From: Acidobacteriota bacterium | GTDB lineage: Bacteria > Acidobacteriota > UBA6911 > RPQK01 > CBDEGM01 | DNA: 64,000 nt | Assembly (NCBI GenBank): GCA_965237715.1 | Contig: CBDEGM010000002.1 | Location: 565,836 to 629,835, forward strand | Reading direction: 5' to 3' | Part shown: positions 42,571 to 58,729 of the stretch, in pieces | Layout: each line of letters begins with the position of its first letter | How positions within the stretch are numbered: position 1 is the stretch's first letter | Made by a program: the position numbers and the translations under genes | The notes under the pieces: model-generated | The model's database searches: none | What the model was told of the DNA's origin: nothing | What the model saw: the letters and a program-made list of their open reading frames with translations, nothing else

Positions 42571-44322
42571 TCAAGCGTGCTTGAACCCAAGCCGCTTTCG
42601 CTGGGCTTCCCACCTGAACGGCAGGCGGGTGTTCTTCATGAGCGTGTTCGCGGTCAGCCCAGGCGGTTGCCGACCGTCGATGATTGCCGTGACGATGTCC
42701 GGGGCAAGGTAGGCAAGCCGCAGCAACCGGGTGACATAGGAGGGTGAGACGCCTTCGGCCTCGGCGATCCGCTGCAGGGCGAGATCGGGGTCTTGCTCCA
42801 ATCGATCCTGGATGGCGAAGGCGCGCAGCAGCAGCCGGATCAGGCCCGGGGCGCACTTGGCATTGTTGCGGGCGCCGGGGACGACTAGTTTCATGCCCGT
42901 GCCAGCGCGCTCAAGGGCGCTTGGAATATCCAGGATGATCGGATGTTTGGCTGGCTGAGCGTCCTGCCTCGATCTTTTTATTGAGACGGCGTCCGGTCCT
43001 GCCAGGAGGGTGGCCAGGGCCCGCTCGCCGTCGATCTCGATCACGACGCGGGCGGACTCGACGATCACCCGCCGGAGAAGCGCATTGAGATAGGCCTTGG
43101 CCTGGTGCGGTTTCAGCTCAGGCCACCGGTCCGCGAGCGATTGCGCCTGGGTGATCAAGCTGGCATGAGCCGATGCCTCTCGAGGGTCTCCATCGATGAC
43201 AGCGCTGATCGCGGCCGCATCAGCGAGCCAGTCCCTGAGATGGACGGTAACGAGGCCTTCGAGATCCGCCGCCGGGAGGCGCCACCCCTTGCGGCCGGCT
43301 CGCTTGCCCTCGAGGATGAGATGGCGGGAGACGTAGTAGCGGTAGCGCCGTCCCTTCTTGACGGCATGGCTGGGTGAGAGGCCCTCGCCCTGCTCGTCAA
43401 CGGCAAGCCCCGTCAGCAGGCTCGGTTGCCGGGTCCCTTCCCGGCGCTCGCCGTTCGTGTTGGCGGCCAGGGTGGCTTGAACCTCATCCCACAGCGCTTC
43501 ATCGACAATGGCCTCATGCTGGCCGGGATAGGCCTTGTCCTTGTGGACCATCTCGCCCCGGTAGAGGCGATTGTGGAGCAGGTGATAAAGCGCCCCGCGG
43601 TTGATGGGTTTGCCGCCGGCAATACTGCCGTCGCGCCTCACTCGCCGCTTGCTGGCGACGCCTTCGGCGGCGAGCCGGCCGCGCAGTTCACGCACGGATT
43701 CGATCTCCCGGTACTGGCGGAAGATAGACCGGACCGTTTCGGCCCCGGCCTCGTTGACGATGAGCTCTTTGTCCTTCACATCGTAGCCCAAGGGCGGGTT
43801 GCCGCCCATCCACATCCCCTTCCTCTTCGAGGCGGCGATCTTGTCGCGGATGCGTTCGCCCGTGACCTCGCGCTCGAACTGGGCGAAGGAGAGCAGGACG
43901 TTCAAGGTCAGACGCCCCATCGAGGTGGTGGTGTTGAACTGCTGGGTGACGGAGACGAAGGAGACCGCTTTTCGATCAAAAATCTCCACAAGCCGGGCAA
44001 AATCCGACAGCGTCCGGGTCAGCCGGTCGACCTTGTAGACGACGATCGTGTCGATCCGCCCGGCCTCGACATCGGCGAGCAGGCGTTGCAACGCCGGCCG
44101 CTCCAGGGTGGCGCCGGAGACGCCGCCATCGTCGTAAAAAGTGGGCAGCACGATCCAGCCCTCGTGCTTCTGGCTCGCGATATAGGCCTCGCAGGCCTCC
44201 CGCTGCGCCTGCAGCGAGTTGAAGTCCTGCTCGAGGCCTTCTTCGGAGGATTTGCGGGTGTAGATGGCGCAGCGCACCGTGGCCAGACTCCTCGCCCGTG
44301 GTGATTTCCGATGCTCAGTCAT
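42571..44322 (-). CDS. Large serine recombinase
   Basis: CAIYTRKSS catalytic Ser, ERPALQRLL, VYKVDRLTR, recombinase and zinc-ribbon-like regions, C-terminal HTH. Confidence 0.93.
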   Translation of the reverse strand: MTEHRKSPRARSLATVRCAIYTRKSSEEGLEQDFNSLQAQREACEAYIASQKHEGWIVLPTFYDDGGVSGATLERPALQRLLADVEAGRIDTIVVYKVDRLTRTLSDFARLVEIFDRKAVSFVSVTQQFNTTTSMGRLTLNVLLSFAQFEREVTGERIRDKIAASKRKGMWMGGNPPLGYDVKDKELIVNEAGAETVRSIFRQYREIESVRELRGRLAAEGVASKRRVRRDGSIAGGKPINRGALYHLLHNRLYRGEMVHKDKAYPGQHEAIVDEALWDEVQATLAANTNGERREGTRQPSLLTGLAVDEQGEGLSPSHAVKKGRRYRYYVSRHLILEGKRAGRKGWRLPAADLEGLVTVHLRDWLADAAAISAVIDGDPREASAHASLITQAQSLADRWPELKPHQAKAYLNALLRRVIVESARVVIEIDGERALATLLAGPDAVSIKRSRQDAQPAKHPIILDIPSALERAGTGMKLVVPGARNNAKCAPGLIRLLLRAFAIQDRLEQDPDLALQRIAEAEGVSPSYVTRLLRLAYLAPDIVTAIIDGRQPPGLTANTLMKNTRLPFRWEAQRKRLGFKHA

Positions 44323-44806
44323 GCTCCGCCGCCGATGCGCTCTCGCCTGAAGGCCGCAGGCCGAAGAAGCGGGGACCGGACCAGTGCGCGCCCGTGATGC
44401 GTTGGGCGATAGCGGTCAAGGAACCATAGGCCTCCCCGTCGTAATCGAAGCCGCTTTCGGTCGCGGTGACGACATGGGTGCGGCCTCGCCATTCGCGCAC
44501 CAGCCGTGTGCCGGGGCACACCTTGGTGCCGTTGCCGGGGGCGACCCGGCCGGTCTCGGCGAAGGCCTGGGCCAGGGCCCGAAGCCGCCGCCGCGCCGCC
44601 TTGGAGAGCCCTCCGTGGACCTGTTCCTGGAGCTTATAGGCGATGCCGCGCATCAGCAGGTCACGGCTGAGCCGCCGGGGCGGGGGCGCCCGGTAATGGC
44701 GCCGCCATGCATCGCGCAGCGATGGCAGGTCCATCTCCTGGATCTCGGTCATCCGGGTCTCGATCGCCGGCACCTCGTGGCCTCCTCCGGGCAGGCTCGT
44801 CATCAA
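44315..44806 (-). CDS. DUF2924-family protein
   Basis: AYKLQEQVHGGL, PGTRLVREWRG, SLTAIAQRITGAHWSGPRFFGL. Confidence 0.85.
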   Translation of the reverse strand: MMTSLPGGGHEVPAIETRMTEIQEMDLPSLRDAWRRHYRAPPPRRLSRDLLMRGIAYKLQEQVHGGLSKAARRRLRALAQAFAETGRVAPGNGTKVCPGTRLVREWRGRTHVVTATESGFDYDGEAYGSLTAIAQRITGAHWSGPRFFGLRPSGESASAAEHD

Positions 44807-44995
44807 TGATTGCCGCCCGGGTCACCTCCATTGACGCTCCGTTGCCCGGTGGAAGTCCAGTCCGAAAGTGAAGATCGATCGTGCTGGGGGAGGATGGACG
44901 ACCGGACCAACACGTCTGAGGCGAACTCCCTCCCCCGGACCGCCGCCTCAACACGCTCATCGTCGTCAGAAACAGCGGGTTTCAGAACGTTGGAG

Positions 44996-46429
44996 TCAAC
45001 CCTCCATGGGTACCAGGATGGGAGCCACGGTGGAGATCCGGCGGTGCCTGCGTTGCCGGCCCCGCTGCCAACCGAGAAACTGCGTGACGCTGTCGACCTG
45101 ATCGTCGTGCCGGCTGTTGGGAAAGGCGAGCAGCTCGTTGAGAAACTCGCCCAGCCAGGGCGCGTGCCTGGGAAGGATGACTCGTCCCGACTCGAAATCC
45201 GTCAATTGAGCCTCGGTGCGCGACAGCTTGTCGCCCTCCGGCTGAATGCCGATGGGAGCCGGCACACACGCGTCGCCGTTGTGGCGCAGCTCCTGAACCA
45301 AGTGCAGCCCCGGCCCCGCCTTTTCGATCAGGATCGTGTTTACGCGTTGAGCCAGGGCCCGCTGGACGATGGCGCGCTTGACGCCCGGATAACCCAGCTG
45401 GCTGCGCCACACCTCGACCAGGTAGCAGGTTTGCCGGTGCACCGCCCAGGTCGTGCACACAGAGTAATCGCTGCTCTTGTTGACCGTCGTGGCCACGTCC
45501 CAGCTTTGCACGATCTGCCAGCCGGTGTCCCGCTCCGGTAGCTGGTCGTAGTACTTCAGCCATTCTCTTTTGATCAGATTGCCCTCATGGGGCACGGGTC
45601 TTTGCTGGTATTGCGCGGAAAAGGTGAGACTACCGACTTCCTCCTTGATGCGCATCAGCGTCTGAAGCGATTCCCGCCCGGGATGGAGCACATCGCCGCG
45701 CTTGCGATCGCGGGTATGTTCCGGCCCCAGGGCGATCGATTGGTCCTCCTCGGCGATGGCCGGAAGATTCAAATGATGCCGATCGCCGCTTTGAAGCAAA
45801 TGGCCGGCGAGATCGTCCTCGTGCAGCCGCTGCACGAGGACGATCATCACATCGCGCGCCTTGTCGTTGAGGCGGGAGACCAGGGCCGTCGTATACCATT
45901 CGTTGACATCGTCGCGGACGGTCTTGGAGCTGGCGTCCCCGGCCTTGAGCGGATCGTCGACAATAATCATGTCCGCGCCCCGTCCGGTCAGGGTGCCGCC
46001 GATGGAGGTCGCCAGGCGGCCCCCGCCCGCGGTGGTCACGCACTCGGTCCCTGCGTCTTTGCTAAGCCGCGTGCCCGGAAAAAGGGCGCGGTACCAGCCG
46101 CTGTTGACGACCTGCCGGAATTGCCGGGCCAGCGCGGCCGCCAGGGCGTCGGAATAGCTCACGCAGATGAAGCGCAGCTTGGGGTTGCGGCCCAAGGCCC
46201 AGGCCACGAAAGCGACGGATGCGCAGATCGATTTCAGGGAGCGGGGCGGTTGCGTGATGATCAGGCGCCGGCACTGGCGATCCGAGCAACGGCCCAATTG
46301 ATAGGCGATGGCTTCAATGTGCCAGTTGTGCCGGTATCTGTCCTCCGGCGAGACCGTCTGGAACGCTTTCTGGATGAACGCCGCCAGATCCGACCGCATC
46401 GCGGCCGCCAGGACGCTCGCGTCAGGCAT
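44996..46429 (-). CDS. Phage terminase large subunit-like protein
   Basis: IITQPPRSLKS Walker A variant, IIVDDP Walker B, nuclease QSWDVA..SDYS and HDDQVDS. Confidence 0.88.
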   Translation of the reverse strand: MPDASVLAAAMRSDLAAFIQKAFQTVSPEDRYRHNWHIEAIAYQLGRCSDRQCRRLIITQPPRSLKSICASVAFVAWALGRNPKLRFICVSYSDALAAALARQFRQVVNSGWYRALFPGTRLSKDAGTECVTTAGGGRLATSIGGTLTGRGADMIIVDDPLKAGDASSKTVRDDVNEWYTTALVSRLNDKARDVMIVLVQRLHEDDLAGHLLQSGDRHHLNLPAIAEEDQSIALGPEHTRDRKRGDVLHPGRESLQTLMRIKEEVGSLTFSAQYQQRPVPHEGNLIKREWLKYYDQLPERDTGWQIVQSWDVATTVNKSSDYSVCTTWAVHRQTCYLVEVWRSQLGYPGVKRAIVQRALAQRVNTILIEKAGPGLHLVQELRHNGDACVPAPIGIQPEGDKLSRTEAQLTDFESGRVILPRHAPWLGEFLNELLAFPNSRHDDQVDSVTQFLGWQRGRQRRHRRISTVAPILVPMEG

Positions 46430-46835
46430 CGCCGGGCTGCTCCGGTTCGTTCGCTTCAGCATTTGTCCCCTGACGCAAAACCCGCTCTCGGTAGTTTTCG
46501 AGAATCTCTTGATCCGGCGCGCCCAATACGCCGGCGGCGGCCGTGGCCAGCTCTTCCGCGTTGTAGGTTTGCGCGAGCGTCACCACGAGATCCAGCGATC
46601 GGGCATCCCCCTTGAGCGCCTTCTCACGCAAGCGCAGGAGCACCCCTTCTTGGGTCGACACGGTCTGCGGCTTGCCATCCTTGACAAGCCGAATGGGGGT
46701 CTCAAGCGTCTTTTTCACGTCGCTCTTGAAGTTGCGCGCCTTGGCGGGACGGCCCTTGGGATTGCCCGATTGGCCGGGCTTGAACCGCGTTGTCTTGGGC
46801 GGTCTGCGGTAGCCGACTTCGTACTCTCCAGCCAT
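46422..46835 (-). CDS. DUF5681-family protein (candidate small terminase)
   Basis: YEVGYRRPP..TRFKPGQSGNPKGRP; overlaps the terL start. Confidence 0.82.
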   Translation of the reverse strand: MAGEYEVGYRRPPKTTRFKPGQSGNPKGRPAKARNFKSDVKKTLETPIRLVKDGKPQTVSTQEGVLLRLREKALKGDARSLDLVVTLAQTYNAEELATAAAGVLGAPDQEILENYRERVLRQGTNAEANEPEQPGDA

Positions 46836-46837
46836 CG

Positions 46838-48232
46838 TCATGAATCCGTTGCATTTTGTCGGGAGGTGTCGGCCGGCCGGCGGCTTGGCCGAATCTCGGC
46901 GAAGGCCGCCCCGCTGGCAGCGTGAACCACAGAGTGACCGGTCAGCCGCTCGTAGCGCTCGATGGCGACGTCGACGTGCTTTGGGTCCAGCTCGATGCCG
47001 AACCCGCGCCGCCCGGTGCGCTCGGCCGCGATCAACGTCGAGCCCGAGCCGGCGAAGCCATCCAGTACGATTCCGCCGCGTCTCGAGCAATCCCTGATCG
47101 CGTCGGCGATCATCGCCACCGGCTTGACCGTCGGATGCAGAGCGAGATCGTCCAGACGGTCCGGCCCCCACGCATTGACGCCCGCATACTCCCAAACGTT
47201 GGTCCGGTTCCGCCCGTGGCGGCCCAGCTCGACGTTGTTGATGTGGGGCGCCGCGCCATGCTTGAAAACGAAGACCAGTTCGTGCCGCGAACGGTAGAGC
47301 GAACCCATACCGCCGTTGGTCTTGCTCCAAACGCACAGATTCTTGAGCTCCGAATAGACCGATTGGCCGGCCGCGAGCACCTCGCCGAGATGACGCCAGT
47401 CCATGCACACATAGTGGATCGAGCCATCGCGGCTATGCTCGGCAAGGTTTCGAAACGTTTTCCCCAGAAAATCCGTATAGGCCCGCTCGGACATCTCGCC
47501 CGAGGCCATGACGAACTCTCCATGGCGCGCCTGGCCTCTGCCGCAGACGTTGCCGCGGATCGGCACGTTGTAGGGCGGGTCGGTGAAAACCAGCCCGGCC
47601 TTCTCCCCGCCCAGCAGCCGCTCGAACACAGAAGGATCCCTGGCGTCGGCGCACAGCAACCGGTGGGCCCCCAGGCGCCACAGGTCGCCGATGCGCGAAA
47701 CCGGCGGCTCGTCGTCGATAGCGGGCAGCTTGTCGGCCGGATCCGTCTCTTCGCCCGACCGCGCCTCATCGAGTAGGAGATCGATCTCGGCCGTCTCAAA
47801 ACCGGTGAGCGTGACGTCGAAACCCAGCGTCAGGTCCGTCAGGAACCGAAGCTCCTCGGTTAACAGCTCGCTGTCCCACCCGGCGTTCTCCGCCAGCTTG
47901 TTGTCCGCGATGACGTAAGCGCGCTTTTGCGCCTCGGTCAGGTCGCCAATGCGGATCGTGGGAACCTGACGGATGCCCAGCAACTTCGCCGCCTCCAGCC
48001 GCCCATGCCCGGCCATCACGCTTCCCTTCTCGTCGACCAAGATCGGGTTGGTGAAACCGAACGCGCGGATGCTGTCGGCGATCTGCCGGATCTGCCGTTT
48101 ACTATGGGTCCGCGGATTGCGCGCGTCAGGCTGGAGGGCCGATATCGCCTGAAAGGTGACCGTTGGCCGGCTGGGGGCGCAATCGGACGCCGGGCGCGTC
48201 GGGGCTCCCGCTTTCGCTGTTTCCTTCATCAA
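46838..48232 (-). CDS. ParB/Srx N-terminal domain fused to an N4/N6 DNA methyltransferase
   Basis: GFTNPILVD..AGHGRLEAA..IADNKL; FTDPPY; HPTVKP; LDGFAGSGST. Confidence 0.9.
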   Translation of the reverse strand: MMKETAKAGAPTRPASDCAPSRPTVTFQAISALQPDARNPRTHSKRQIRQIADSIRAFGFTNPILVDEKGSVMAGHGRLEAAKLLGIRQVPTIRIGDLTEAQKRAYVIADNKLAENAGWDSELLTEELRFLTDLTLGFDVTLTGFETAEIDLLLDEARSGEETDPADKLPAIDDEPPVSRIGDLWRLGAHRLLCADARDPSVFERLLGGEKAGLVFTDPPYNVPIRGNVCGRGQARHGEFVMASGEMSERAYTDFLGKTFRNLAEHSRDGSIHYVCMDWRHLGEVLAAGQSVYSELKNLCVWSKTNGGMGSLYRSRHELVFVFKHGAAPHINNVELGRHGRNRTNVWEYAGVNAWGPDRLDDLALHPTVKPVAMIADAIRDCSRRGGIVLDGFAGSGSTLIAAERTGRRGFGIELDPKHVDVAIERYERLTGHSVVHAASGAAFAEIRPSRRPADTSRQNATDS

Positions 48233-48380
48233 AAACCTCTATCGAGATCTATGAACACCCCGCCAGATCTTCCTACCTGCATTCATTGCTCTTCCTCCTA
48301 ATGGGTTCACGTCGTCGTTGCATCCTTAGCGGCCGCTAGAGTCCCGATGGACCGAGGCGGCCGCCCTTCTGATCGCATCC

Positions 48381-48421
48381 TCCATTATAACACGCCATAC
48401 CGCTGATCCGCTGTCTAGCGT
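48381..48421 (-). promoter_or_regulatory. Candidate promoter and operator for the MTase-terminase operon
   Basis: Extended -10 TGtTATAAT (hexamer 48384-48389, minus strand); GATCCGCTGtcTAGCGT at 48405-48421 matches 49509-49525. Confidence 0.5.
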
Positions 48422-48438
48422 ATTATCATGCCAAAAAA

Positions 48439-49140
48439 CTAAACGAACAAACCAGGAACCGCCGTCTTGACCAATATTCGCCGCTGTTCCAGTCGCACTC
48501 GTGCAGCCTCGAGGGACACGTGAAACGCCGCCGCGATGCGGTCGATCATGGCCTGCCCGGCCTCCGATCCGACGGCTATGTTGCTGTACATGAGGCCTTC
48601 GGTGGCACGGAACGCCCGGACAACCCGCACATGTTCGGTTCTTGGCATCAACAACGCCCCACAGGCGTACCCCGCCTGCCATTCCATCCAGTCGCTGCTG
48701 GGCGCGACGATCGCCTCTCTGTGACAGGTGTTGCGTGTTTTCCGCGGCTCGCCCGCGAACAACCTTCCGAGTCCGTCCTCCAGAGCGAACAGGAAGCCGT
48801 GCACAAGCACGTGGCCGCATTCGTGCGTGAGTGTCGCGCGAAGGCGATTTTCGTAATTGGGTGCCTGTAGACGACTGGCGATCTTGACGTGCGGCTTCCT
48901 TCGCGGGAAGAAATCCGTCAACCCGTCGACACCGTCCTCGAGCACGCAGCCATTGTCCAGATCGTCGACCTCCCGCTCAAGGAGGACCGTGAGGTCGTCA
49001 GTGCTGGCCGGGAAGGCCACCCTGCCGTGACGGTCCCACAGAAAGCGAGTCATCGTATCCTCACAGAGCTGTTCGAGCTCGTCGGGATGGTAGTGTGGTC
49101 GCTCTCGAAACCGCCCGGAGTTGTCACGCACCCATTTCAC
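48439..49140 (-). CDS. ImmA/IrrE-family metallopeptidase (anti-repressor)
   Basis: RLRATLTHECGH (HExxH), EWQA..ACGALLMP, FHVSLEAARVRL. Confidence 0.9.
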   Translation of the reverse strand: MKWVRDNSGRFRERPHYHPDELEQLCEDTMTRFLWDRHGRVAFPASTDDLTVLLEREVDDLDNGCVLEDGVDGLTDFFPRRKPHVKIASRLQAPNYENRLRATLTHECGHVLVHGFLFALEDGLGRLFAGEPRKTRNTCHREAIVAPSSDWMEWQAGYACGALLMPRTEHVRVVRAFRATEGLMYSNIAVGSEAGQAMIDRIAAAFHVSLEAARVRLEQRRILVKTAVPGLFV

Positions 49141-49164
49141 GGCGATACTCCTTTGATCTCGGAT

Positions 49165-49497
49165 TCATGTCTTGTCCTTGAGCACCTTCCGAAAAGCAGT
49201 GAAGGCCTTCTCGACTCGCTGCGGGTCAGACCCCGGGAGCTTCTCCCGCAGGTCCGTTGGCCAGAGACCCGCCGCGGCGATCAGATGCTCCTTCGAGAGC
49301 CCCAAATGTCCTGCGAGCTGCTCGATGATGTACTCCGACGGCGGATTTCGCCGGTCGTGTTCGATGTCGTTGAGATACTGCGGCGAGATCGCACCCCCGC
49401 CTCCTTTACGTGTTCTCGCCGCCAATTCCTTCTGGCTCATGCCGAGCGCCTTGCGCGCGTCCGCAATGATCCGGCCGAATGTGCTCAAGTGTCCCAT
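49165..49497 (-). CDS. XRE-family HTH repressor (ImmR-like)
   Basis: ARKALGMSQKELA...ISPQYLNDIEHDRRNP; directly upstream of the ImmA-like gene. Confidence 0.9.
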   Translation of the reverse strand: MGHLSTFGRIIADARKALGMSQKELAARTRKGGGGAISPQYLNDIEHDRRNPPSEYIIEQLAGHLGLSKEHLIAAAGLWPTDLREKLPGSDPQRVEKAFTAFRKVLKDKT

Positions 49498-50344: not shown

Positions 50345-52306
50345 CTATTCCCGATCCATCCTCTCTTTCACCGGCACTACCGGCAGTGTTGTAAAGAGCT
50401 GGTTGCTGGCATCGAGTTCCACGGCCACTCCGGTGAACATCCCCTCCCCTGGCGCGGTGCAGCGCACCGACCCCGCGAAATCGGACGTATCGGTGCGGGG
50501 GAACATCTGCTCGATGTACTGGGCGTCCTGCCCGTTGACCTCCAGCGGGATGGCCACCTCTTCGAGCACAATGCCCCCGCTCATCAACCGGTAACTCACC
50601 CCCAGGGCTTCCTCTCCCAGGTTGTGGATCGCCGCCGCGGTGCTGATTCCCCCCACCTGGCGGCGGGTCGGGAAGATGGCGTCCCTTACGGGTTGGCTGG
50701 CTCCCACCCCGGCCACCCCGATGCCGGGCAGGCCGAAGCGCAGGACCCCGCCGATGGGACCGTCCGAGACCACCTTCACTGATCCGCTCACCACCTCCCC
50801 ACGGCCGTGGGTCGAAATCGTGAGTTCGCCTAACGGTTCCATGGCCGTCCGCACGCTCAGGGCACCGTCTTCCAGGATCTCCAGATCCGGTGTGACATCC
50901 ACCACCGACCGGACGGCAATGGGTTCGCCTTCCTGGTCGTAGAAGTGGAGGGCGGGCCGGATCGGATGGGGGGCTACATTCACGAGCACGATCCCGGAGG
51001 TGATGCCGGTCCCATTGGCGAAATGCGCAAAGTCCAGGGTGCGCTCGCGAAACGGGACCCCAACCGACCATACCTTGGCGCCTCCGGCTCCGAAGCTGGC
51101 GATCCGGGGATCGTCAGGCGAGAACACGATGCCGCTGCCGCGCCCGCCGCCGCCTGGGAGAATCGTCAGCAAATCGCCGGTCAGGGCATCCCACATCCAG
51201 GTTGTCCCGTCTGGACTCACACCTGCCAGGCGCAGCCCATCCTGGGAGAATGCAGCATAGGAGAAAGGTGCTCTATGTCCTTCCAGCGTGAGCAGTTCCC
51301 CACCGGTACGGGCGTCCCAGACGCGCAACACGCGGTTGCGGCCGTCGTACGTCACCACTCGTCTGCCGTCCGGGGAGAATCTTGCGCCGCCCCGTCTACC
51401 GGCTGTCTCCAGGTCGGCAAGCTCCGCGCCTGTTTTTGCGTTCCACACCTAGACCCTGCGTTCGGGAAACTGTCCGTCAATGGTGAGCAGCAACGAGCCA
51501 TCGGGGGATTCTTCCACGTAGACGACGCCCTTTTCAAAAGTCAGGGAGTGCAGGATTTCGCCCGACACCCAATCTAAAACTGTTGCCCCGTTGTTCGAAG
51601 CAATCAGCAAGCGTACTCCGTCGTAGGACCAGGACACATGCCTGTACTCCGTGTACTCCGCTCTGTCCGGATCAAGTTCCAACGGCTCCGAGGCGATATT
51701 GTCAAGGTTCCAAACCGTGATGAAAGAGCTCACCGCGGCGAGGCGCCGGCCATCCGGAGACCAGGCCGGCGGAACGGACTTGGCTGTCGAGCGTAATCCC
51801 GGTTCCGCCCTGTGTTGCATGGTCCCAGAGTTCGAGTACATTGAAGGACTGCGAATCCGAGATCGTAAGAAAGCGGTCTCCACGGGGGGGGAATACGACA
51901 CATGTTCGACGGGGCGTCTGGGCGGCCTCAAGCGAGAAACCGGTTCAACGCGTTCCGGCAACTCGTAGAGTTGAACGCCCGTCTCTGCGTCCCAGACCCT
52001 GACAGAGCCGTCTCTACCCGAAGTGACGATGTGGGTCCCATCGGGCGAGTAATCCAGCGAGAGCACTGTTCCGCGTTGGTGGCCCTCGAAGCGGGCCACT
52101 TCCCGGCCTGTGGCTCTCTCCCAGACGATTGCCCTGCCGTCAGCACCGGCAGTCGCGAATTGGCTCCCGTCCCAGGACCAATCCACGGTCAAGACGTAGT
52201 TGAGAAAGATGTCGATATCCAGCAACTGCATTCCCGTTTCGACGTCCCAGACCTTCGCAGTTCGGTCCAGTCCCACGCTGGCGAGGTAGCGCCCTTCCGG
52301 CGAAAA
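50345..52306 (-). pseudogene. WD40-repeat protein with the conserved ~230-aa C-terminal domain; in-frame TAG at 51449-51451; 5' end truncated by a MITE
   Basis: Repeated SPDG...VWDAETG blades; ORFs 51449-52276 and 50345-51448 share a frame; C-terminus LDFAHFANG...FTTLPVVPV. Confidence 0.8.
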
Positions 52307-52436
52307 GGTACTGTCAAGTTAAGTGGAATTCTCGGGTTTTGGAGGCGAAATCGGTCGTCGGTCGAACGTAGAATCAACAACTTAGGGACTTGCCAAGGCG
52401 CTGATTAGGCACCAAATCGGTTAACTTGACAGTACC
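52307..52436. mobile_element. 130-bp MITE with 16-bp perfect TIRs
   Basis: GGTACTGTCAAGTTAA ... TTAACTTGACAGTACC; no target duplication. Confidence 0.88.
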
Positions 52437-53025
52437 GCTCGTCGGGCTTTCGCTCGTTCCACCAAAATGCGGCACGGTCGGCCACTAGCGAACTTACGCG
52501 GGCTTCGCCGTGCTTATCCTCATAAATCATTGAGACGGTGCAACCGAACAGCCGACGCATTTGGTTGCGGAGCCGGGTGCGAACACCCGTCGCCCCGCCG
52601 CTGTCGCTGCTAAGGATACCGAGCGTCCGCATGAACTCAGAGAGCGAACGGCCCAGGACGAGCTCGCGGCTTCCCGTCCGTACCACTTCGGTACAGAGCC
52701 AGGCCAGGAGCAGCCGGGGGAAGTTGCCGTAGGGGAGTTTGTAGCCTGGACCTGACTGCATATAGAGCGTGAAGGGGCCGTTGACGCGCTTGTATTCTTT
52801 CCGGTTGCCAGGGTTGGTGCGCGGGAGGTTGCACAACACTATCATCCGCGCCATGAAGCCGAGATTGGGGTCCGCTTCGCTGGCCCCGACAAGCTGGTGC
52901 ACCTGATCGGCAAGGGTGAAGTGGTGCAACGCCTGGGGCGAGGCTTCGCGGAGCGCCTGGACTTGGCCGGGTAGATCGCCGAAGGCTTCCCCGATCGGAA
53001 CCAAGCCGTCTCGTTTGCTCTGCAT
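52437..53025 (-). pseudogene. Plasmid-type replication protein RepA (RepA_C-like), C-terminally truncated
   Basis: LGFMAR..LP.TNP, LPYGNFPRLLLAWL.TE, LGRSLSEFMR.LG, RLRNQMRRLF; cut at the MITE. Confidence 0.8.
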
Positions 53026-53067
53026 GGCTTATTCTCCCACAGCCCTCAGACAAGACAGGGACCCCCG

Positions 53068-56000
53068 TTATTCCTGGGACGGCATCTCTGGAACCGGCAC
53101 CACCGGCAAGGTCGTGAAGATGCGGTTGGCGGCATCCAGCTCCACGGCCACTCCGGTGAACATCCCTTCCCCTGGCGCGGTGCAGCGCACCGACCCCGCA
53201 AAATCGGACGTATCGGCCCCGGTGAACACCTCGTCGATGAACCAGGACGACTGCCCATTGGCCGCAAGGGGAATGCTCTCGGCTTCGAGCACGGTACCCC
53301 CTTGCATCAATTCGCACGTCACCTCCACCGCTTCTTCGCCCGGGTTGTGGATCGCCACCCCGGTGTTGATTCCCCCCGCCTGGCGGCGCACCGGGAAGAG
53401 GGCGTCGTGGACGGGTGAGCTGGCTCCCACCCCGGCCACCCCGACGCCGGGCAGGTCAAAGCGCAGGACCCCGCCGATGGGCTCGTCCGCGATCACCCGC
53501 ACCGATCCGCTCACCAGCGCCCCGCGCCCGTGGGTCGAAATCGTGAGTTCGCCCAGGGGCTCCATTTCCGTCTGGACCGTCAGCCCGCCGTCCTCGGTGA
53601 TCTCCAGATCCCCGGTGATATCCACCACCGATTCGGCGGACACGAGCGCGCCCTCGGTGTCGTAGAAATAAAGAGCGGGGCGCGCCGGAAGGATGTCCGA
53701 ATGAAAGGGGGTGGGCGCGGGACGGCTCCGCTCGGTGGATAGGTTCAGGAACACCAGATCGGAGGTAAGGCCCGCCCCATTGGCGAAATGCGCGAAGTTC
53801 AGCTCCGCCGCCCGGCCTCCGGCGCGCCGCGTCGGAAACACCGGCAGGGTGGTGAAGATGCGGCGGGCGGCATCCAGCTCCAGGGCCACGGCTGTGAACA
53901 TCCCCGGACCCGCTGCATCGCAATGCACCGACCCCGCGAAATCGGACGTATCGGCGGCGGGGAACGCCGCGTCGATGAACCAGGATGACTGCCCGTTGGC
54001 CGCTAGAGGGAGACTCACGGCGTCGTGCAGCACGCCCTCTCGCATCAATTCGCAGCGCACGATTTCCGGGCTCGATTCCAGGTTGTGGATCGCCACCCCG
54101 GTGTTGATTTCCCCCGCCTGGCGGCGCACCGGGAAGAGGGCGTCCCTCACGGGTGAGCTGGCTCCCACCCCGGCCACCCCGATATCCGGGAGATCAAAGC
54201 GCAGGACTCCGCCGATGGCCCCGAACGCGACCACCCGCGCCGATCCACTCACCAGCTCCCCTTGGCCGTGGGTCGAGATCGTGAGTTCTCCCAGCGGCTC
54301 CATCGCCGTCTGGATGCTCAGGCTGCCGTCCTCTTGGATCTCCAGATCGCCCGTGATGTCCACCACCGATTCGGCGGCAATGAGATTCCCCTCTTTATCG
54401 TAGAAGTAGAGGGCGGGACGGATCGGCTGGGTCCCCACATTTAGGAACACCAGATCGGAGGTAAGGCCATCGCCGTTGGCGAAATGCGCAAAGTCCAGGG
54501 TAAACACTTCCGGCTTAGCCTCGCCCCGGTTGGAAGAGGCACTCCCGCCCGCCGCGTTGACCGCCCGCACCTCGAAGACGTAGACCGTGCCATTGACGAG
54601 TCCGGTAACCGTATGGGTGGTTTGGGTGGAACCGGTGGAGATCCAGGGATCACTCCTGTTGATCCGGTATTCGTAATCCGTGATCTCCGCCCCGCCGTCG
54701 CTCGCCGGAGCGTCCCAACTCAGCACGACCTCACCGTTCCCGCCCACCACCGTCAGGTTCGTCGGCGCGCCGGGCACGGACGTTGTCGGTACGCCACCAC
54801 CGCCTGGAGGTCCGGGTGGTGGAGGTGGCGGAGAGGGCGGGTCAGGCGGTGGTGGATCAGGAGGAGGAGGCGGGGGCGGGGTGACCGTCTCAGTGGCACC
54901 CCCGAAGACCCAGGGGCGGGCCTGCTTGATCGCCAGGATGTCGGCACTCGTGATCTTGAACTCGATCTCCATGGCGAACGGCTCATCAGGGGCGGGGTTG
55001 TACAGCCCTTCGAAGTGGGCATGGATCACCTCAAGATGCGCTCTCAACTGGCGCAGTTGGTCGTCGCTCATGAGGAGCTGCCCCGGCTCCACCAGGTTGG
55101 AGGTCGCCAGGATGGTGTAATTACCTACCGATCTCAACAAGAGTTCCTCCGGCACCGAGTACTCTTCGGGATTGGTGACCAGATCCTCGCCGAGTTGCGT
55201 GTTGACGTAGTAGATCCCGTCACTGCCGTAGATGGGGTCAAAGCTGACGCCCACGCCGTTGGCCAACTCGTCCGAGTAGTTGGGATGCACCAGCACCCCC
55301 ATCGCCGCCGCCAGGTGATCGATCCGATAGAAGTCCCGTTCGGTGAAAGCCCGGAAGGTCCACAGGCTGGCCCACACCCCTTTGATGGATTTGTCGATGC
55401 CATCCTCCTCGGTCTCGTCGGGATGCTGGGTCTTGGAGTCGTACAGGCCCGCCCCGTTGAACCCCGGCAGGTCTTCGTTGTTGGTGCTGGACCGGTAGCG
55501 CAGCGAGGTCCCCTCGGGAAACATCGCGTGCATGGCGGTCAGCGCCTCGATGATCCAGGCGGGCGTCTCCGCGTCCTTGATGGCGTCGCGGAGATCATCG
55601 AGCCTGTCATCCTGGGTTTCGAAGTCCGTCTGGAAATCTTCGTCGGCCAGCATCTCCTTGACGTCGTCATAGAATCCGTGGGCCTTCATGAACTCGTCGT
55701 AGAAATAGAACGGGATCGCAAATCCGTCGGGGACGGTCCCCTCCGGAAAACCCAGCGTCCCCAGCACGGCCAGGTTGGCCGCCTTGACCCCGAACGTCTT
55801 CCAGTCCTCGAAACCGATCTGACTGAGGGGGGTGATCGACGTGACCGAGAGGTTCCGTTGCGGTGTCTGTTCTTCGGTGGGCCGGGAGGACTCGTAGTGC
55901 GCGTCCACTTCCTCGGGTGTGGCCATGCGCAGCGACCAGCCCGCAGCGGTCACCTCGTAGCGGACGTACCCGCCGATTAGAGGCGCGATATCCGGGTCGT

Positions 56001-57597
56001 CGAGGGCATCGCGGATGAAGGCGTTGGGGATGCCGTCCTGGACGGCGCGCAGGTTGACGTGCGACAGCGGGGTTTGGGGCACGGCGGAGATGATGCCGGC
56101 GACGCGGGGCAATTCGTTGGGTAGCGCCTCGTAGAGCACGATGTCGCGCGGGTGGGGCCGGTCGTCCGGCTCCAGGGCCTGCAGCCGGCCGTACCCTTCC
56201 CCCGGGTTCAACGCCAGGAAGTTGAATTCGCCGTAAATGTCGACATTGAACACGAGGTCGATCCGGGACTCCCTGAGCAACGGCAACTCGGGCTGTAAAT
56301 CAGGAAGCTGATAGTTTGTGATATGGAAAGTCAGGTTGTCATCGAGAAGCGGCATGCTGGCAGCAAGCAGCGTATAGACGCGGTCCACCAAGACGAAGGA
56401 GGGATTTGCCGTCACCCCAAAATGGAAGATCTGTTCGCTGCCGACCGAGCGATAACTGATCAGGCCGAGAAGAGCCTGATTTCGTTCAATACCCCTGTCA
56501 TCCAGGAAGGTCTGATGGTACGGGTGCTGTTTGGCGTTGATGAAGTAGAGACTCGGCCGGTCGGTGTCCCAGCCCAGCAGAATGAATTTGAAGGTTCTGT
56601 ATATGGCCAGTGTGTCGTATGTCTGCTTGTCGGGAACAGCTAGGGCACCGTCGCTGAGATCGACCGGGGCGGCGGGATTCACCGGGTTCATGCTCACTGG
56701 GTCCCCCAGTTCGGTGATGTCGTCGATGCAGTCGCCGTCGCCGTCGGCCGGGTCGGTGATCTGGTACTTCTCCACCCGATAACGCTCTTTCGGCAGCGCC
56801 TCCACGTTCTCGGATAGCGTGGTCGTACCCGCTTCCCCCAGGGTCACCGCGACCGGCAGTTTCACCTCCGTGCGATACAAATCGTGCTGCACATAGAGCA
56901 CGAAGTACTCCTCAGTCGTCGACTGGACCACTATGGGAACGGCCGTCACCGCCGCCACCACCACCGTCGGGTTATAGCCGCCTCCTTCACACGGCTCTTC
57001 AGGGTCGCCGCCCTGGGCGAGGGCGTTTCCGCTCGACAAAAAGACAAGGGAAGCGAGGGCGAAGACGGCGCGCTTGCGCCCGTGGTGGGGGTGGAGCGGG
57101 TTCTGGAAAGCCGCGAAGATGGACCGCAGGACCGCTGGCAACACGGCGAGAAGGACAAGGAGGGTCCGTCCGCACGATAGACATACGGCGGAAGCGGACG
57201 GCGCGCTCGTACGGGCGGGTAGGCTTAGGTCAGAGGTGTAGCGTGGCTCTTGGCTCTTGGCTCTTGGCTCTTGGCTCTTGGCTCTTGGCTCTTGGCTCTT
57301 GGCTCTTGGCTCTTGGCTCTTGGCTCTTGGCTCTTGGCTCTTGGCTCTTGGCTCTTGGCTCTTGGCTCTTGGCTCTTGGCTCTTGGCTCTTGGCTCTTGG
57401 CTCTTGGCTCTTGGCTCTTGGCTCTTGGCTCTTGGCTCTTGGCTCTTGGCTCTTGGCTCTTGGCTCTTGGCTCTTGGCTCTTGGCTCTTGGCTCTTGGCT
57501 CTTGGCTCTTGGCTCTTGGCTCTTGGCTCTTGGCTCTTGGCTCTTGGCTCTTGGCTCTTGGCTCTTGGCTCTTGGCTCTTATGATTTTGTGCGCCAC
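53068..57597 (-). CDS. Large secreted multidomain protein: repeat leader, signal-like segment, phospho-His-like and PEP/pyruvate-binding (PPDK-N) domains, Pro linker, FN3, two copies of the ~230-aa C-terminal domain
   Basis: TPLSHVNLRA; FGVKAANL, VPDGFAIP, RSSTNNEDLPGFNGAGLYDS, IKQARP; LSWDAPASDGG...YVFEVRAVN; true start uncertain. Confidence 0.82.
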   Translation of the reverse strand: MAHKIIRAKSQEPRAKSQEPRAKSQEPRAKSQEPRAKSQEPRAKSQEPRAKSQEPRAKSQEPRAKSQEPRAKSQEPRAKSQEPRAKSQEPRAKSQEPRAKSQEPRAKSQEPRAKSQEPRYTSDLSLPARTSAPSASAVCLSCGRTLLVLLAVLPAVLRSIFAAFQNPLHPHHGRKRAVFALASLVFLSSGNALAQGGDPEEPCEGGGYNPTVVVAAVTAVPIVVQSTTEEYFVLYVQHDLYRTEVKLPVAVTLGEAGTTTLSENVEALPKERYRVEKYQITDPADGDGDCIDDITELGDPVSMNPVNPAAPVDLSDGALAVPDKQTYDTLAIYRTFKFILLGWDTDRPSLYFINAKQHPYHQTFLDDRGIERNQALLGLISYRSVGSEQIFHFGVTANPSFVLVDRVYTLLAASMPLLDDNLTFHITNYQLPDLQPELPLLRESRIDLVFNVDIYGEFNFLALNPGEGYGRLQALEPDDRPHPRDIVLYEALPNELPRVAGIISAVPQTPLSHVNLRAVQDGIPNAFIRDALDDPDIAPLIGGYVRYEVTAAGWSLRMATPEEVDAHYESSRPTEEQTPQRNLSVTSITPLSQIGFEDWKTFGVKAANLAVLGTLGFPEGTVPDGFAIPFYFYDEFMKAHGFYDDVKEMLADEDFQTDFETQDDRLDDLRDAIKDAETPAWIIEALTAMHAMFPEGTSLRYRSSTNNEDLPGFNGAGLYDSKTQHPDETEEDGIDKSIKGVWASLWTFRAFTERDFYRIDHLAAAMGVLVHPNYSDELANGVGVSFDPIYGSDGIYYVNTQLGEDLVTNPEEYSVPEELLLRSVGNYTILATSNLVEPGQLLMSDDQLRQLRAHLEVIHAHFEGLYNPAPDEPFAMEIEFKITSADILAIKQARPWVFGGATETVTPPPPPPPDPPPPDPPSPPPPPPGPPGGGGVPTTSVPGAPTNLTVVGGNGEVVLSWDAPASDGGAEITDYEYRINRSDPWISTGSTQTTHTVTGLVNGTVYVFEVRAVNAAGGSASSNRGEAKPEVFTLDFAHFANGDGLTSDLVFLNVGTQPIRPALYFYDKEGNLIAAESVVDITGDLEIQEDGSLSIQTAMEPLGELTISTHGQGELVSGSARVVAFGAIGGVLRFDLPDIGVAGVGASSPVRDALFPVRRQAGEINTGVAIHNLESSPEIVRCELMREGVLHDAVSLPLAANGQSSWFIDAAFPAADTSDFAGSVHCDAAGPGMFTAVALELDAARRIFTTLPVFPTRRAGGRAAELNFAHFANGAGLTSDLVFLNLSTERSRPAPTPFHSDILPARPALYFYDTEGALVSAESVVDITGDLEITEDGGLTVQTEMEPLGELTISTHGRGALVSGSVRVIADEPIGGVLRFDLPGVGVAGVGASSPVHDALFPVRRQAGGINTGVAIHNPGEEAVEVTCELMQGGTVLEAESIPLAANGQSSWFIDEVFTGADTSDFAGSVRCTAPGEGMFTGVAVELDAANRIFTTLPVVPVPEMPSQE
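57245..57580. repeat. Perfect tandem heptamer (GGCTCTT)x48, 336 bp
   Basis: Counted directly; reads SQEPRAK on the minus strand. Confidence 0.98.
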
Positions 57598-57654: not shown

Positions 57655-58729
57655 CGCGTTGTTGCACAAATCGCTTCGGCACGTCCGCTTGTCTCCGATG
57701 GGCCAGGGTGCCAGCATGAGGAATGACGCCGAATCAATACACGTTCCGGTACCGAGTACGCAACTGGTCAGACTACAATCGGGCGCTGATCGCCAGGGGG
57801 CGTCTGACCTTTTGGTTCGATGAGGACGCCGTTGCCGCCTGGCGGAACGCCGACCCGCCCAAGGGCCCCGGCGCTCCGAAGGTTTACTCCGACACGGCCA
57901 TTCAGTGTGCGCTGATATTGAAGTCGGTGTTTCATCTTAGCCTTCGGTCGACGCAGGGCTTCGTTTCTTCGCTCCTGGAGTTGCTCAGACTCGATCTGCC
58001 AGTTCCAGACTACAGCACTCTCAGTAGACGACAGAGTTCCTTGGCGACGTTCTTGACTGTTAGCCCAAGCAGTCGGCCTCGGCACGTGGTTGTGGATGCG
58101 ACGGGCCTGAGAGTGTACGGCTCGGGTGAAGGGCACGTCCGAAAGCATCGACATGGTCGGCGCAGAGCCTGGCGCAAGCTGCACCCGGGTGTCGATGAGA
58201 GGACGAAAGAGATTGTGGCGGTGGAGGTTACACCGAGCCGGGTTCCACGACTGTCGTCTGTTGCCGGCCCTGCTGGATCAGATTCCGGGTCGCATCGTTC
58301 AAGTCTCGGGCGACGGGGCCTATGACACGAGGGCCTGTTATCAATCGATACTCGAGCGGGAGGCTGTCGCCACCATCCCTCCGCGACGCAGTGCGCGGCT
58401 GAGTGAAAGTGTGGACCCGCCTGCCTGGCGGGCAATGCGGGATGCCCATCTACGAGAAATAAGGAGAGACTCGGTCGATATGAATGGCGCATCTCCAGTG
58501 GTTGCACCAGGCAAAGCCTTGCAGAGAATGCGATGTCGAGGTTCAAGACGTTGTTTGGGCCTAAGCTGTCGGCCCGACGATTCGACAATCAACGGGTCGA
58601 GGCCATCATCAAATGTGAGGTGCTGAATCGTATGTCAAGCCGGGGCATGCCTGAGTCAGTGCGAATTCGATAGCATTCAAACAGGACTGGGATCGGTCCG
58701 TGACCCGACCGGATTTGTGCAACAACGCG
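57655..58729 (+). mobile_element. IS5-family (IS903-like) element; transposase 57723-58673 with two frameshifts
   Basis: TIR CGCGTTGTTGCACAAATC at both ends; NWSDYNRAL..RG, PDYSTLSRR, VDATGL, GDGAYD. Confidence 0.92.

Follow-up and report, generated by a model that had tools for sequence, protein, structure and literature searches.

We wanted to know what kind of domain closes two large and otherwise unrelated genes in the genome of an Acidobacteriota bacterium, and what such a domain may do for the proteins that carry it. The window analyzed here is a stretch of 64,000 nucleotides (assembly GCA_965237715.1, contig CBDEGM010000002.1, positions 565,836 to 629,835). It contains three similar copies of a unit of approximately 232 residues, here called A, B and C, at the 3' ends of a gene with WD40 repeats and of a gene with a PPDK_N domain. 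Structure prediction presents each copy as a pair, or dyad, of beta-sandwiches of the type found in the sensory rhodopsin transducer of Anabaena (ASRT) and in TM1070. The unit represents a new family with the ASRAH fold, and its intact members usually carry an inner and a terminal dyad (together a tetrad) as the constant C-terminus of Sec-exported multidomain proteins with varied cargo.

Three copies of one C-terminal unit

An earlier note on this DNA, made from the sequence alone, had described three similar copies of a C-terminal domain. We found them at the positions claimed, all on the minus strand (Table 1); copies B and C lie in tandem at the 3' end of an open reading frame (ORF) of 1509 codons. 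Over approximately 235 residues copy C was 67% and copy B 62% identical to copy A. The protein alignment contained 131 columns invariant among the three copies, including the motifs quoted in the note, and the mean column identity of the DNA was 84%. With such values the similarity of the copies is not attributable to chance.

Pfam recognized WD40 repeats 5' of copy A, and PPDK_N and fn3 domains 5' of copies B and C. Scans of the copies themselves with Pfam and NCBIfam gave nothing at or above the cut-offs of the models, and no NCBIfam match to them was significant. Profiles built from 3 and from 62 sequences found chance-level matches only (E 0.67 or worse) among the sequences of the Protein Data Bank (PDB), and tblastn of copy C against a plasmid collection gave no match.

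Predicted fold of the unit

For this analysis 62 dyads from the same genome and from related loci were aligned. The AlphaFold2 model of the unit was all-beta (predicted local distance difference test, pLDDT, 95.9; predicted template modelling score, pTM, 0.90). Predicted models of the unit were compared with solved chains in an exhaustive structural search. The second half (residues 120-228) matched TM1070 (1nc7_A) with Z 13.1 and a root-mean-square deviation (rmsd) of 2.2 Å over 104 of 116 residues, and the Anabaena transducer (2ii7_A) with Z 10.0, while the next-ranked chain reached 7.0. The first half, modelled alone (pLDDT 92.6), matched 1nc7_A with Z 10.5 (rmsd 2.9 Å, 98 of 116 residues) and 2ii7_A with Z 8.0; here the next-ranked chain reached 6.7. 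Since both halves gave 1nc7 and 2ii7 as the top two, each copy is, on these models, a dyad in which two eight-stranded beta-sandwiches of the ASRT/TM1070 type follow one another. The internal repeat was weak by sequence (hhalign of half 1 against half 2: E 0.0047, 32 columns only), and the two-sandwich reading therefore rests on the structure models.

The earlier note had proposed AlphaFold and Foldseek as a check. AlphaFold returned the confident all-beta dyad, Foldseek was weak, and the exhaustive structural search led to TM1070 and ASRT. The Foldseek matches in the PDB (TM-score ≤0.26, rmsd 15-20 Å) were tandem-sandwich proteins, among them transglutaminase C-terminal barrels, pilins and WxLIP, and were dismissed as generic.

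Distribution and architecture of the family

An exhaustive search returned 2298 clusters (50% identity) at E ≤0.001, 528 of them at E ≤1e-30. Species-representative genomes were searched with patterns from close relatives; the best 80 matches, which correspond to 70 distinct loci, all came from metagenome-assembled genomes of Acidobacteriota. Below, L-numbers denote these related genomic loci and P-numbers denote cluster representatives. At E ≤1e-10 the family was present in 50 of 401 sampled genomes of the phylum (a tally that includes genome G049): the genome of the window, all 27 others of its order, 7 of another 10 from its class, and 15 others. True ASRT proteins (PF07100) were detected in 10 of the 401 (G024 included), none of them of the same order. 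Genomes of this order held 14-166 first-look candidates each. The genome of the window had 55 domain matches, comprising 25 full dyads and 30 partial ones. Several of its other copies were fragments or had in-frame stops, and at G000:C4:1855689-1858557 the halves of a dyad lay on separate ORFs approximately 1.6 kb apart, which suggests an insertion.

Two full dyads were found in 107 of the 148 best representatives, one in 39 and none in 2. Inner and terminal dyads form separate subtypes; the terminal one carries a conserved insertion of approximately 14 residues (consensus of 42 terminal dyads). In 126 of the 148 the family region ended at most 20 residues from the C-terminus. The cargo varied widely. 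Among 40 representatives we detected fn3 (27), LRR (8) and PPDK_N (2), with no Pfam family in 5; cadherin, Calx-beta, PPC and SWM repeats, astacin, an M64 peptidase, GSDH with Spondin_N, He_PIG and BACON were also present. The 42 ORFs of related loci gave fn3 (27), LRR (11), WD40 (6), PPDK_N (3) and none (4), and further CARDB, NHL, an M14 peptidase, Big_12 and SusE-like domains. The idea that a modular C-terminal unit is joined to unrelated N-terminal cargoes was thus borne out by this catalogue and by the terminal position.

The same holds for the suggestion that the cargo is of an extracellular or eukaryote-like kind, and many complete members had Sec signal peptides. A strongly hydrophobic stretch within the first 70 residues was present in 70 of the 148 representatives, many with an AxA-type cleavage site; many of the other representatives begin inside repeats and resemble truncated gene models. 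The WD40 relatives L031, L033, L034 and L036 begin MRSKTRILL...LGAARP(L/I)SS-QEF. In the second sandwich a pair of Cys residues was complete in 52 of the 62 dyads, absent from 9 and single in 1. That the pair is kept or lost jointly fits a disulfide in an exported protein. Intact members consist of freely varying N-terminal cargo, usually an fn3 spacer, and the inner and terminal dyads as the constant C-terminus of a Sec-exported multidomain protein.

We also looked for known sorting signals. Neither the proteins of the window nor the isolated copies gave a Pfam or NCBIfam match to Por_Secre_tail, the C-terminal domain (CTD) of type IX secretion. SprA_N and Por_Secre_tail had no match in the genome of the window (95.5% complete), a result that is uninformative, as the controls were silent too. 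A signal of the PEP-CTERM/exosortase type was absent, with only 5-8 polar residues following the last strand (FTTLPVVPV...). The sole NCBIfam match related to sorting signals was TIGR04200 (E 0.019), and it lay in the N-terminal region.

Predicted packing of the two dyads

The inner and terminal dyads were folded as two chains. The complex scored 0.87, and the highest value among 3 controls was 0.36. Of 157 solved complexes 116 reach the mark applied to this score, as do 2 of 215 mismatched pairs; this calibration is only roughly valid here because alignments made for this analysis were used. The runs shared at least 94% of contacts, and the pLDDT of the partner was at least 89. The predicted interface is made of the most conserved motifs of the family, namely strand 2 with its Asn, EPLGE, GGV.R, GVAGVG, FP, FAG and the terminal FTTLPV. 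The prediction supports a face-to-face packing of the two dyads, in which a single chain would imitate the ASRT tetramer.

A new family of the ASRAH fold

The ASRAH superfamily was defined from ASRT/TM1070 by De Souza, Iyer and Aravind in 2009 (PMC2739507). It comprises three families: stand-alone cytoplasmic proteins, secreted tetrads linked to amidases in Chloroflexi, and dyads in actinobacterial surface lipoproteins. Free ASRT proteins are homotetramers, and non-ASRT members, which were always dyads or tetrads, were proposed to form possibly tetramer-like bodies. A pocket for sugars or small molecules was predicted on one sheet, partly walled by the subunit interface (PMC2739507).

The signature Asn of ASRAH, at the end of strand 2, is kept in our family. 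In the model of the dyad strand 2 comprises residues 17-25 and 136-144, closed by N25 and N144; among the 62 sequences N25 was at least 90% conserved and N144 invariant, and hhalign aligned the signature Asn of ASRT with N25. The other hallmark is a well-conserved Trp that starts strand 1. We observed no Trp there; strand 1 instead has near-invariant Phe residues (F8, F11; F127 is invariant in the three copies of the window), which may be its counterparts. Strand 2 reads TS.LVLVN and I.T.AAIHN here, in contrast to SHE..C.LN in true ASRT members. When 9 true ASRT sequences were compared with the dyad alignments, hhalign gave E 0.0049 and 0.0021 (probability 7-13%, 21 columns) with shallow alignments (effective number of sequences, Neff, 2-4). 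The PF07100 model matched neither the three copies at E ≤10 nor the 62 members at E ≤1.

DUF5719 (PF18986) was the only Pfam family matched by more than one member (4 of 62 at E ≤1), always in the same register. Its best score, 25.9 bits (E 6.6e-6) for a divergent paralog, was under the gathering cut-off of 26.2, and copy C reached 15.8 bits (E 0.008). The nearest named clusters in the ESM Atlas carry DUF5719, and one acidobacterial cluster has DUF5719 (39%) together with ASRT (13%). A search with DUF5719 gave two sub-threshold matches in the genome of the window, while 0 of 14 control genomes were matched. The actinobacterial lipoproteins, the third ASRAH family, are probably identical with DUF5719.

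We class the unit as a new family within the ASRAH fold and as a member of neither PF07100 nor PF18986. The superfamily of the fold was already known; current models do not cover this family, its size, the way in which an fn3-tetrad is placed on varied exported cargo, or the concerted evolution of the family (see below). Our literature search, which covered listings and text of PMC2739507, yielded no account of the family, the architecture or the concerted evolution. The domain had been called uncharacterised in the earlier note, and this does not hold for its fold, which is solved and whose superfamily was described in 2009. It does hold in that the superfamily's own function is a prediction, so that the domain is well characterised in part only.

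Recombination and mobile elements around the family genes

The suggestion that the shared DNA promotes recombination is borne out by two observations, namely the hybrid nature of copy A (see below) and a set of five paralogs on one contig of another genome (L049, L052, L054, L055, L056). These share a 3' block that is 99.8-100% identical. It spans approximately 1747-1835 bp upstream of the stop codon, that is fn3 and both dyads, and 51-600 bp downstream. Their cargo was 83-85% identical or had no detectable DNA similarity, and the upstream boundary of the block was sharp. As judged from these sequences, the pattern indicates concerted evolution or cassette exchange.

A translocon encoded beside the family genes had also been considered. 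When the flanking ORFs of the 70 loci were clustered, we found no recurrent gene for secretion, a translocon or glycan synthesis. The recurrent neighbours were mobile-element genes instead (IS240- and IS5-type transposases, ArdC and RepA_C), and the rest were unnamed ORFs. In the window a truncated RepA_C ORF lies between the two family genes, 43 bp downstream of copy C. The DNA that immediately follows the terminal dyad is conserved in L042, L044 and L053 as well, and the remnant of the replication gene may therefore be carried along with the family gene.

The two family genes of the window are located in a stretch of 60-65% G+C, compared with 56% for the genome. Positions 42571-49497 are taken up by genes of mobile elements, namely a large serine recombinase, DUF2924, a terminase-like gene (Terminase_6C), a fusion of ParB with an N6/N4 methylase, and an IrrE-like peptidase with an XRE regulator. 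On the other side an IS5-type transposase (57723-58626) is split into overlapping ORFs (57723-58325 and 58126-58626), being either frameshifted or subject to programmed frameshifting.

Table 1. Positions of the family copies, their genes and associated features in the window.
Feature	Positions	Strand	Basis or remark
Copy A, single ASRAH-like dyad	50345..51052	-	closes ORF 50345-51448
Copy C, terminal dyad with 14-residue insertion in the first sandwich	53068..53808	-	alignment, terminal-dyad consensus
Copy B, inner dyad	53809..54510	-	alignment of copies
WD40-plus-dyad gene remnant	50345..52308	-	94.7-95.7% DNA identity over ~1.95 kb to L031, L032, L034
In-frame TAG splitting the WD40 frame	51449..51451	-	CAG in L031 and L034
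Truncated RepA_C ORF	52405..53025	-	Pfam E 1.5e-15, profile positions 2-111 of 181
Constant 3' module (fn3 + two dyads)	53066..54805	-	88.5% over 1743 bp to L074
Longest ORF, PPDK_N-fn3-tetrad gene	53068..57597	-	no internal stop; first ~128 codons traverse the 7-bp repeat
fn3	54526..54768	-	Pfam E 1e-12, residues 944-1024, directly before the dyads
PPDK_N (PF01326), ATP-grasp-type nucleotide-binding domain of phosphoenolpyruvate-utilising enzymes	54910..55794	-	Pfam E 4.8e-24, residues 602-896
Probable start and Sec leader	57016..57144	-	GTG at 57144; read from sequence
Perfect 7-bp microsatellite	57244..57580		Tandem Repeats Finder: 48.1 copies, 100% matches

The WD40 gene is a pseudogene

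The earlier note had presented one gene in which a WD40 propeller is capped by a copy of the unit. The WD40 repeats were confirmed, but the single live gene was not: the reading frame is split into two abutting ORFs (51449-52276 and 50345-51448) and its 5' part is lost. The ORFs of L031 and L034 (1240 and 1235 codons) encode a signal peptide, WD40 repeats and two dyads, and that of L032 has 857 codons. Homology to these relatives stops at 52308, beside the truncated RepA_C ORF. The first ~620 bp of copy A were 97-100% identical to the inner dyad of L031/L032, and the last ~100 bp were 98-100% identical to their terminal dyad. Since copy A thus joins the body of an inner dyad to the tail of a terminal one, one whole unit was lost by exchange between the repeats. 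Copy A was also the only dyad of the 62 that keeps just one Cys of the conserved pair.

Therefore, on the basis of the 5' truncation, the change of CAG to a TAG nonsense codon and the deletion of one dyad, the WD40 gene is a decayed pseudogene with two dyads fused into one. Reading of TAG as a sense codon was ruled out, as the relatives have CAG and the gene is also truncated and one unit short.

The PPDK_N gene and the 7-bp tract

The PPDK_N-fn3-tetrad gene looks intact. Its conserved 3' part was located correctly in the earlier note; the 5' end proposed there was too short, as homology reaches 54805 and takes in the fn3 domain. This boundary is marked by L074, a Big_12/SWM/fn3 gene whose cargo is unlike that of the window gene. 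PPDK_N cargo recurs in P0124, P0152, L048, L068 and L069. In the window gene PPDK_N is the sole recognised cargo domain of an apparently exported protein (54910-56990), and approximately 400 residues before it are unassigned.

The start of the gene is likely the GTG listed in Table 1, followed by a signal-peptide-like leader ending ...GRKRAVFALASLVFLSSGNALA-QGG, and similar leaders occur in P0123, P0132, P0229 and others. Just 5' of the leader sits the 7-bp tract, the only one of its kind in the genome. Two further species have the same 7-bp unit at the equivalent place, ahead of family genes whose cargo is different, with 12 copies in L077 (3789-3872) and 2 in L067 (2837-2850), and database homologs begin with 0, 1, 3 or at least 7 AKSQEPR units. 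No reading frame is closed by the 7-bp repeat, and translation of L077 from a TTG that follows its tract yields a normal signal peptide. For these reasons the long ORF's own start, by which (AKSQEPR)n would belong to the protein, is doubtful and probably wrong. The tract could be a hypervariable expression switch, lying either in the 5' untranslated region or in the coding sequence. Upstream of the PPDK_N gene, a scan for promoters and terminators detected nothing promoter-like on the minus strand.

Possible function of the tetrad

We lean slightly towards the view that the tetrad is a non-catalytic, glycan-binding, pseudo-tetrameric anchor for cargo, by analogy with other ASRAH proteins. The inner and terminal dyads would pack into a compact four-sandwich body mimicking the ASRT homotetramer, and this body would bind a glycan or a small ligand in the manner of the pocket predicted for ASRAH (PMC2739507). 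As a foot it may hold the cargo on a polysaccharide layer, be it the envelope or exopolymer of the cell itself or the matrix around it; for this the proteins would have to cross the outer membrane. Since the module is encoded by long near-identical DNA in many paralogs, this DNA doubles as a recombination handle: gene conversion homogenises it within a genome, and unequal exchange swaps cargo or deletes units.

Several points weigh against such an anchor. The idea of a ligand goes back to the prediction of 2009, made for distant relatives. Sequence homology to ASRT is marginal (hhalign probability 7-13%), and the H and C of the ASRT pocket signature SHEshChhN are not kept in the family. The conserved motifs concentrate in the predicted interface, so much of the conservation may reflect the packing of dyad against dyad and not a ligand site. 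The complex prediction itself pairs homologous halves of one chain, and its values are model confidence and no measurement. Between 22 and 846 extra residues follow the last dyad in 22 of the 148 representatives. A strict C-terminal position on many Sec-exported paralogs would suit a sorting tag equally well, and the anchor reading does not account for the passage of such large proteins over the outer membrane.

The tetrad might indeed be an export or sorting tag comparable to the CTD of type IX secretion substrates, read after Sec by an outer-membrane translocon or an attachment enzyme and maybe removed or covalently attached. This would account for the strictly C-terminal position in the 126 representatives, for the dozens of paralogs per genome with unrelated cargo and for the common Sec signal peptides, and the 99.8-100% homogenisation within a genome suits one shared partner. 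We nevertheless consider it unlikely, as approximately 460 residues in four domains are far above the size of known sorting domains, the fold belongs to a family predicted to bind ligands, no secretion gene recurs beside the family genes in the examined loci, and the proteins of the window gave no significant match to Por_Secre_tail or to an NCBIfam sorting signal. The predicted sugar binding of the superfamily (PMC2739507) and a cargo rich in eukaryote-like repeats (LRR, cadherin, WD40, NHL, fn3) would also fit a tetrad that is itself the adhesin, a lectin that recognises glycans of prey or of a eukaryotic host and is assisted in binding by the N-terminal repeats. However, host-directed binding surfaces tend to diversify, while this module is constant and uniform within a genome, and the chance of a lectin of this kind seems rather small to us. 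A ligand-free tetrad, serving as a rigid base or oligomerisation knob of stalk-like surface proteins, would agree with the concentration of conserved motifs in the predicted interface, with the tetrameric state of free ASRT proteins (PMC2739507) and with the loss of the ASRT pocket residues. Yet motifs beyond the predicted interface (STHG, RRQ, NGQ, DTSD) are highly conserved as well, and a purely structural role leaves the strictly terminal position unaccounted for, which makes such a knob very unlikely.

A broader and more speculative idea is that one acidobacterial order displays proteins at its surface by an unrecognised system, for which fn3-(ASRAH)4 is the address label. The module would be read by a single partner specific to the genome (a translocon, an attachment enzyme or an envelope glycan), and it is because of this one partner that gene conversion would keep the module 99.8-100% uniform. 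Cargo cassettes, bounded by the 3' module and a common 5' leader, would be exchanged and carried further by conjugative elements, and the 7-bp tract would switch members on and off. We regard the whole of this picture as quite improbable.

A very large set of exported proteins, at present annotated only in part, can be recognised by this module, with dozens of genes per genome in one order, and a fourfold ASRT-type body would give them a testable common function, that is attachment via a glycan or small ligand. The module can also serve as a simple marker when the surface and 'eukaryote-like' repertoire of these bacteria is catalogued. Further, the family extends the ASRAH superfamily, whose function has so far been predicted, to a context in which binding assays are straightforward. 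The near-identical 3' module on unrelated cargo is in addition a clear example from nature of concerted evolution acting together with domain shuffling.

Comparison with known systems

In function the closest analogues are the type IX CTD, SLH and similar domains, which like the module of the window are constant, terminal and beta-rich and occur on many Sec-exported paralogs with varied cargo. They differ in that the module has no match to them in sequence or fold and is approximately 4-5 times larger, and in that no cognate machinery was found among the neighbours of the examined loci.

In fold the closest relatives are ASRT and TM1070 (PF07100; PDB 2II7, 1NC7). The eight-stranded sandwich and the Asn closing strand 2 are shared, as is the assembly of four sandwiches, which is predicted here to take place within one chain. 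By the description in PMC2739507, ASRT proteins are single-domain and cytoplasmic and have the SHEshChhN signature. In contrast, the domains of the window lack that H and C and are fused in fours to exported proteins, the PF07100 model is silent on them, and the tetrad module and PF07100 were found in different genomes of the sample.

The other two ASRAH families are described in the same source. The actinobacterial lipoproteins resemble the window proteins in being extracytoplasmic, in having dyads, and in a predicted role in binding polysaccharides at the surface (PMC2739507). They have N- and C-terminal extensions of their own and are linked to WhiB, a glycosyltransferase and an inactive peptidase, whereas here there is no lipobox context and the dyads are doubled and terminal on variable cargo. 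The Chloroflexi tetrads are likewise secreted, with four ASRAH domains per chain beside another functional domain. We set them apart by their description, in which the partner is always an N-acetylmuramoyl-L-alanine amidase, while the tetrad described here is joined to at least 12 domain types.

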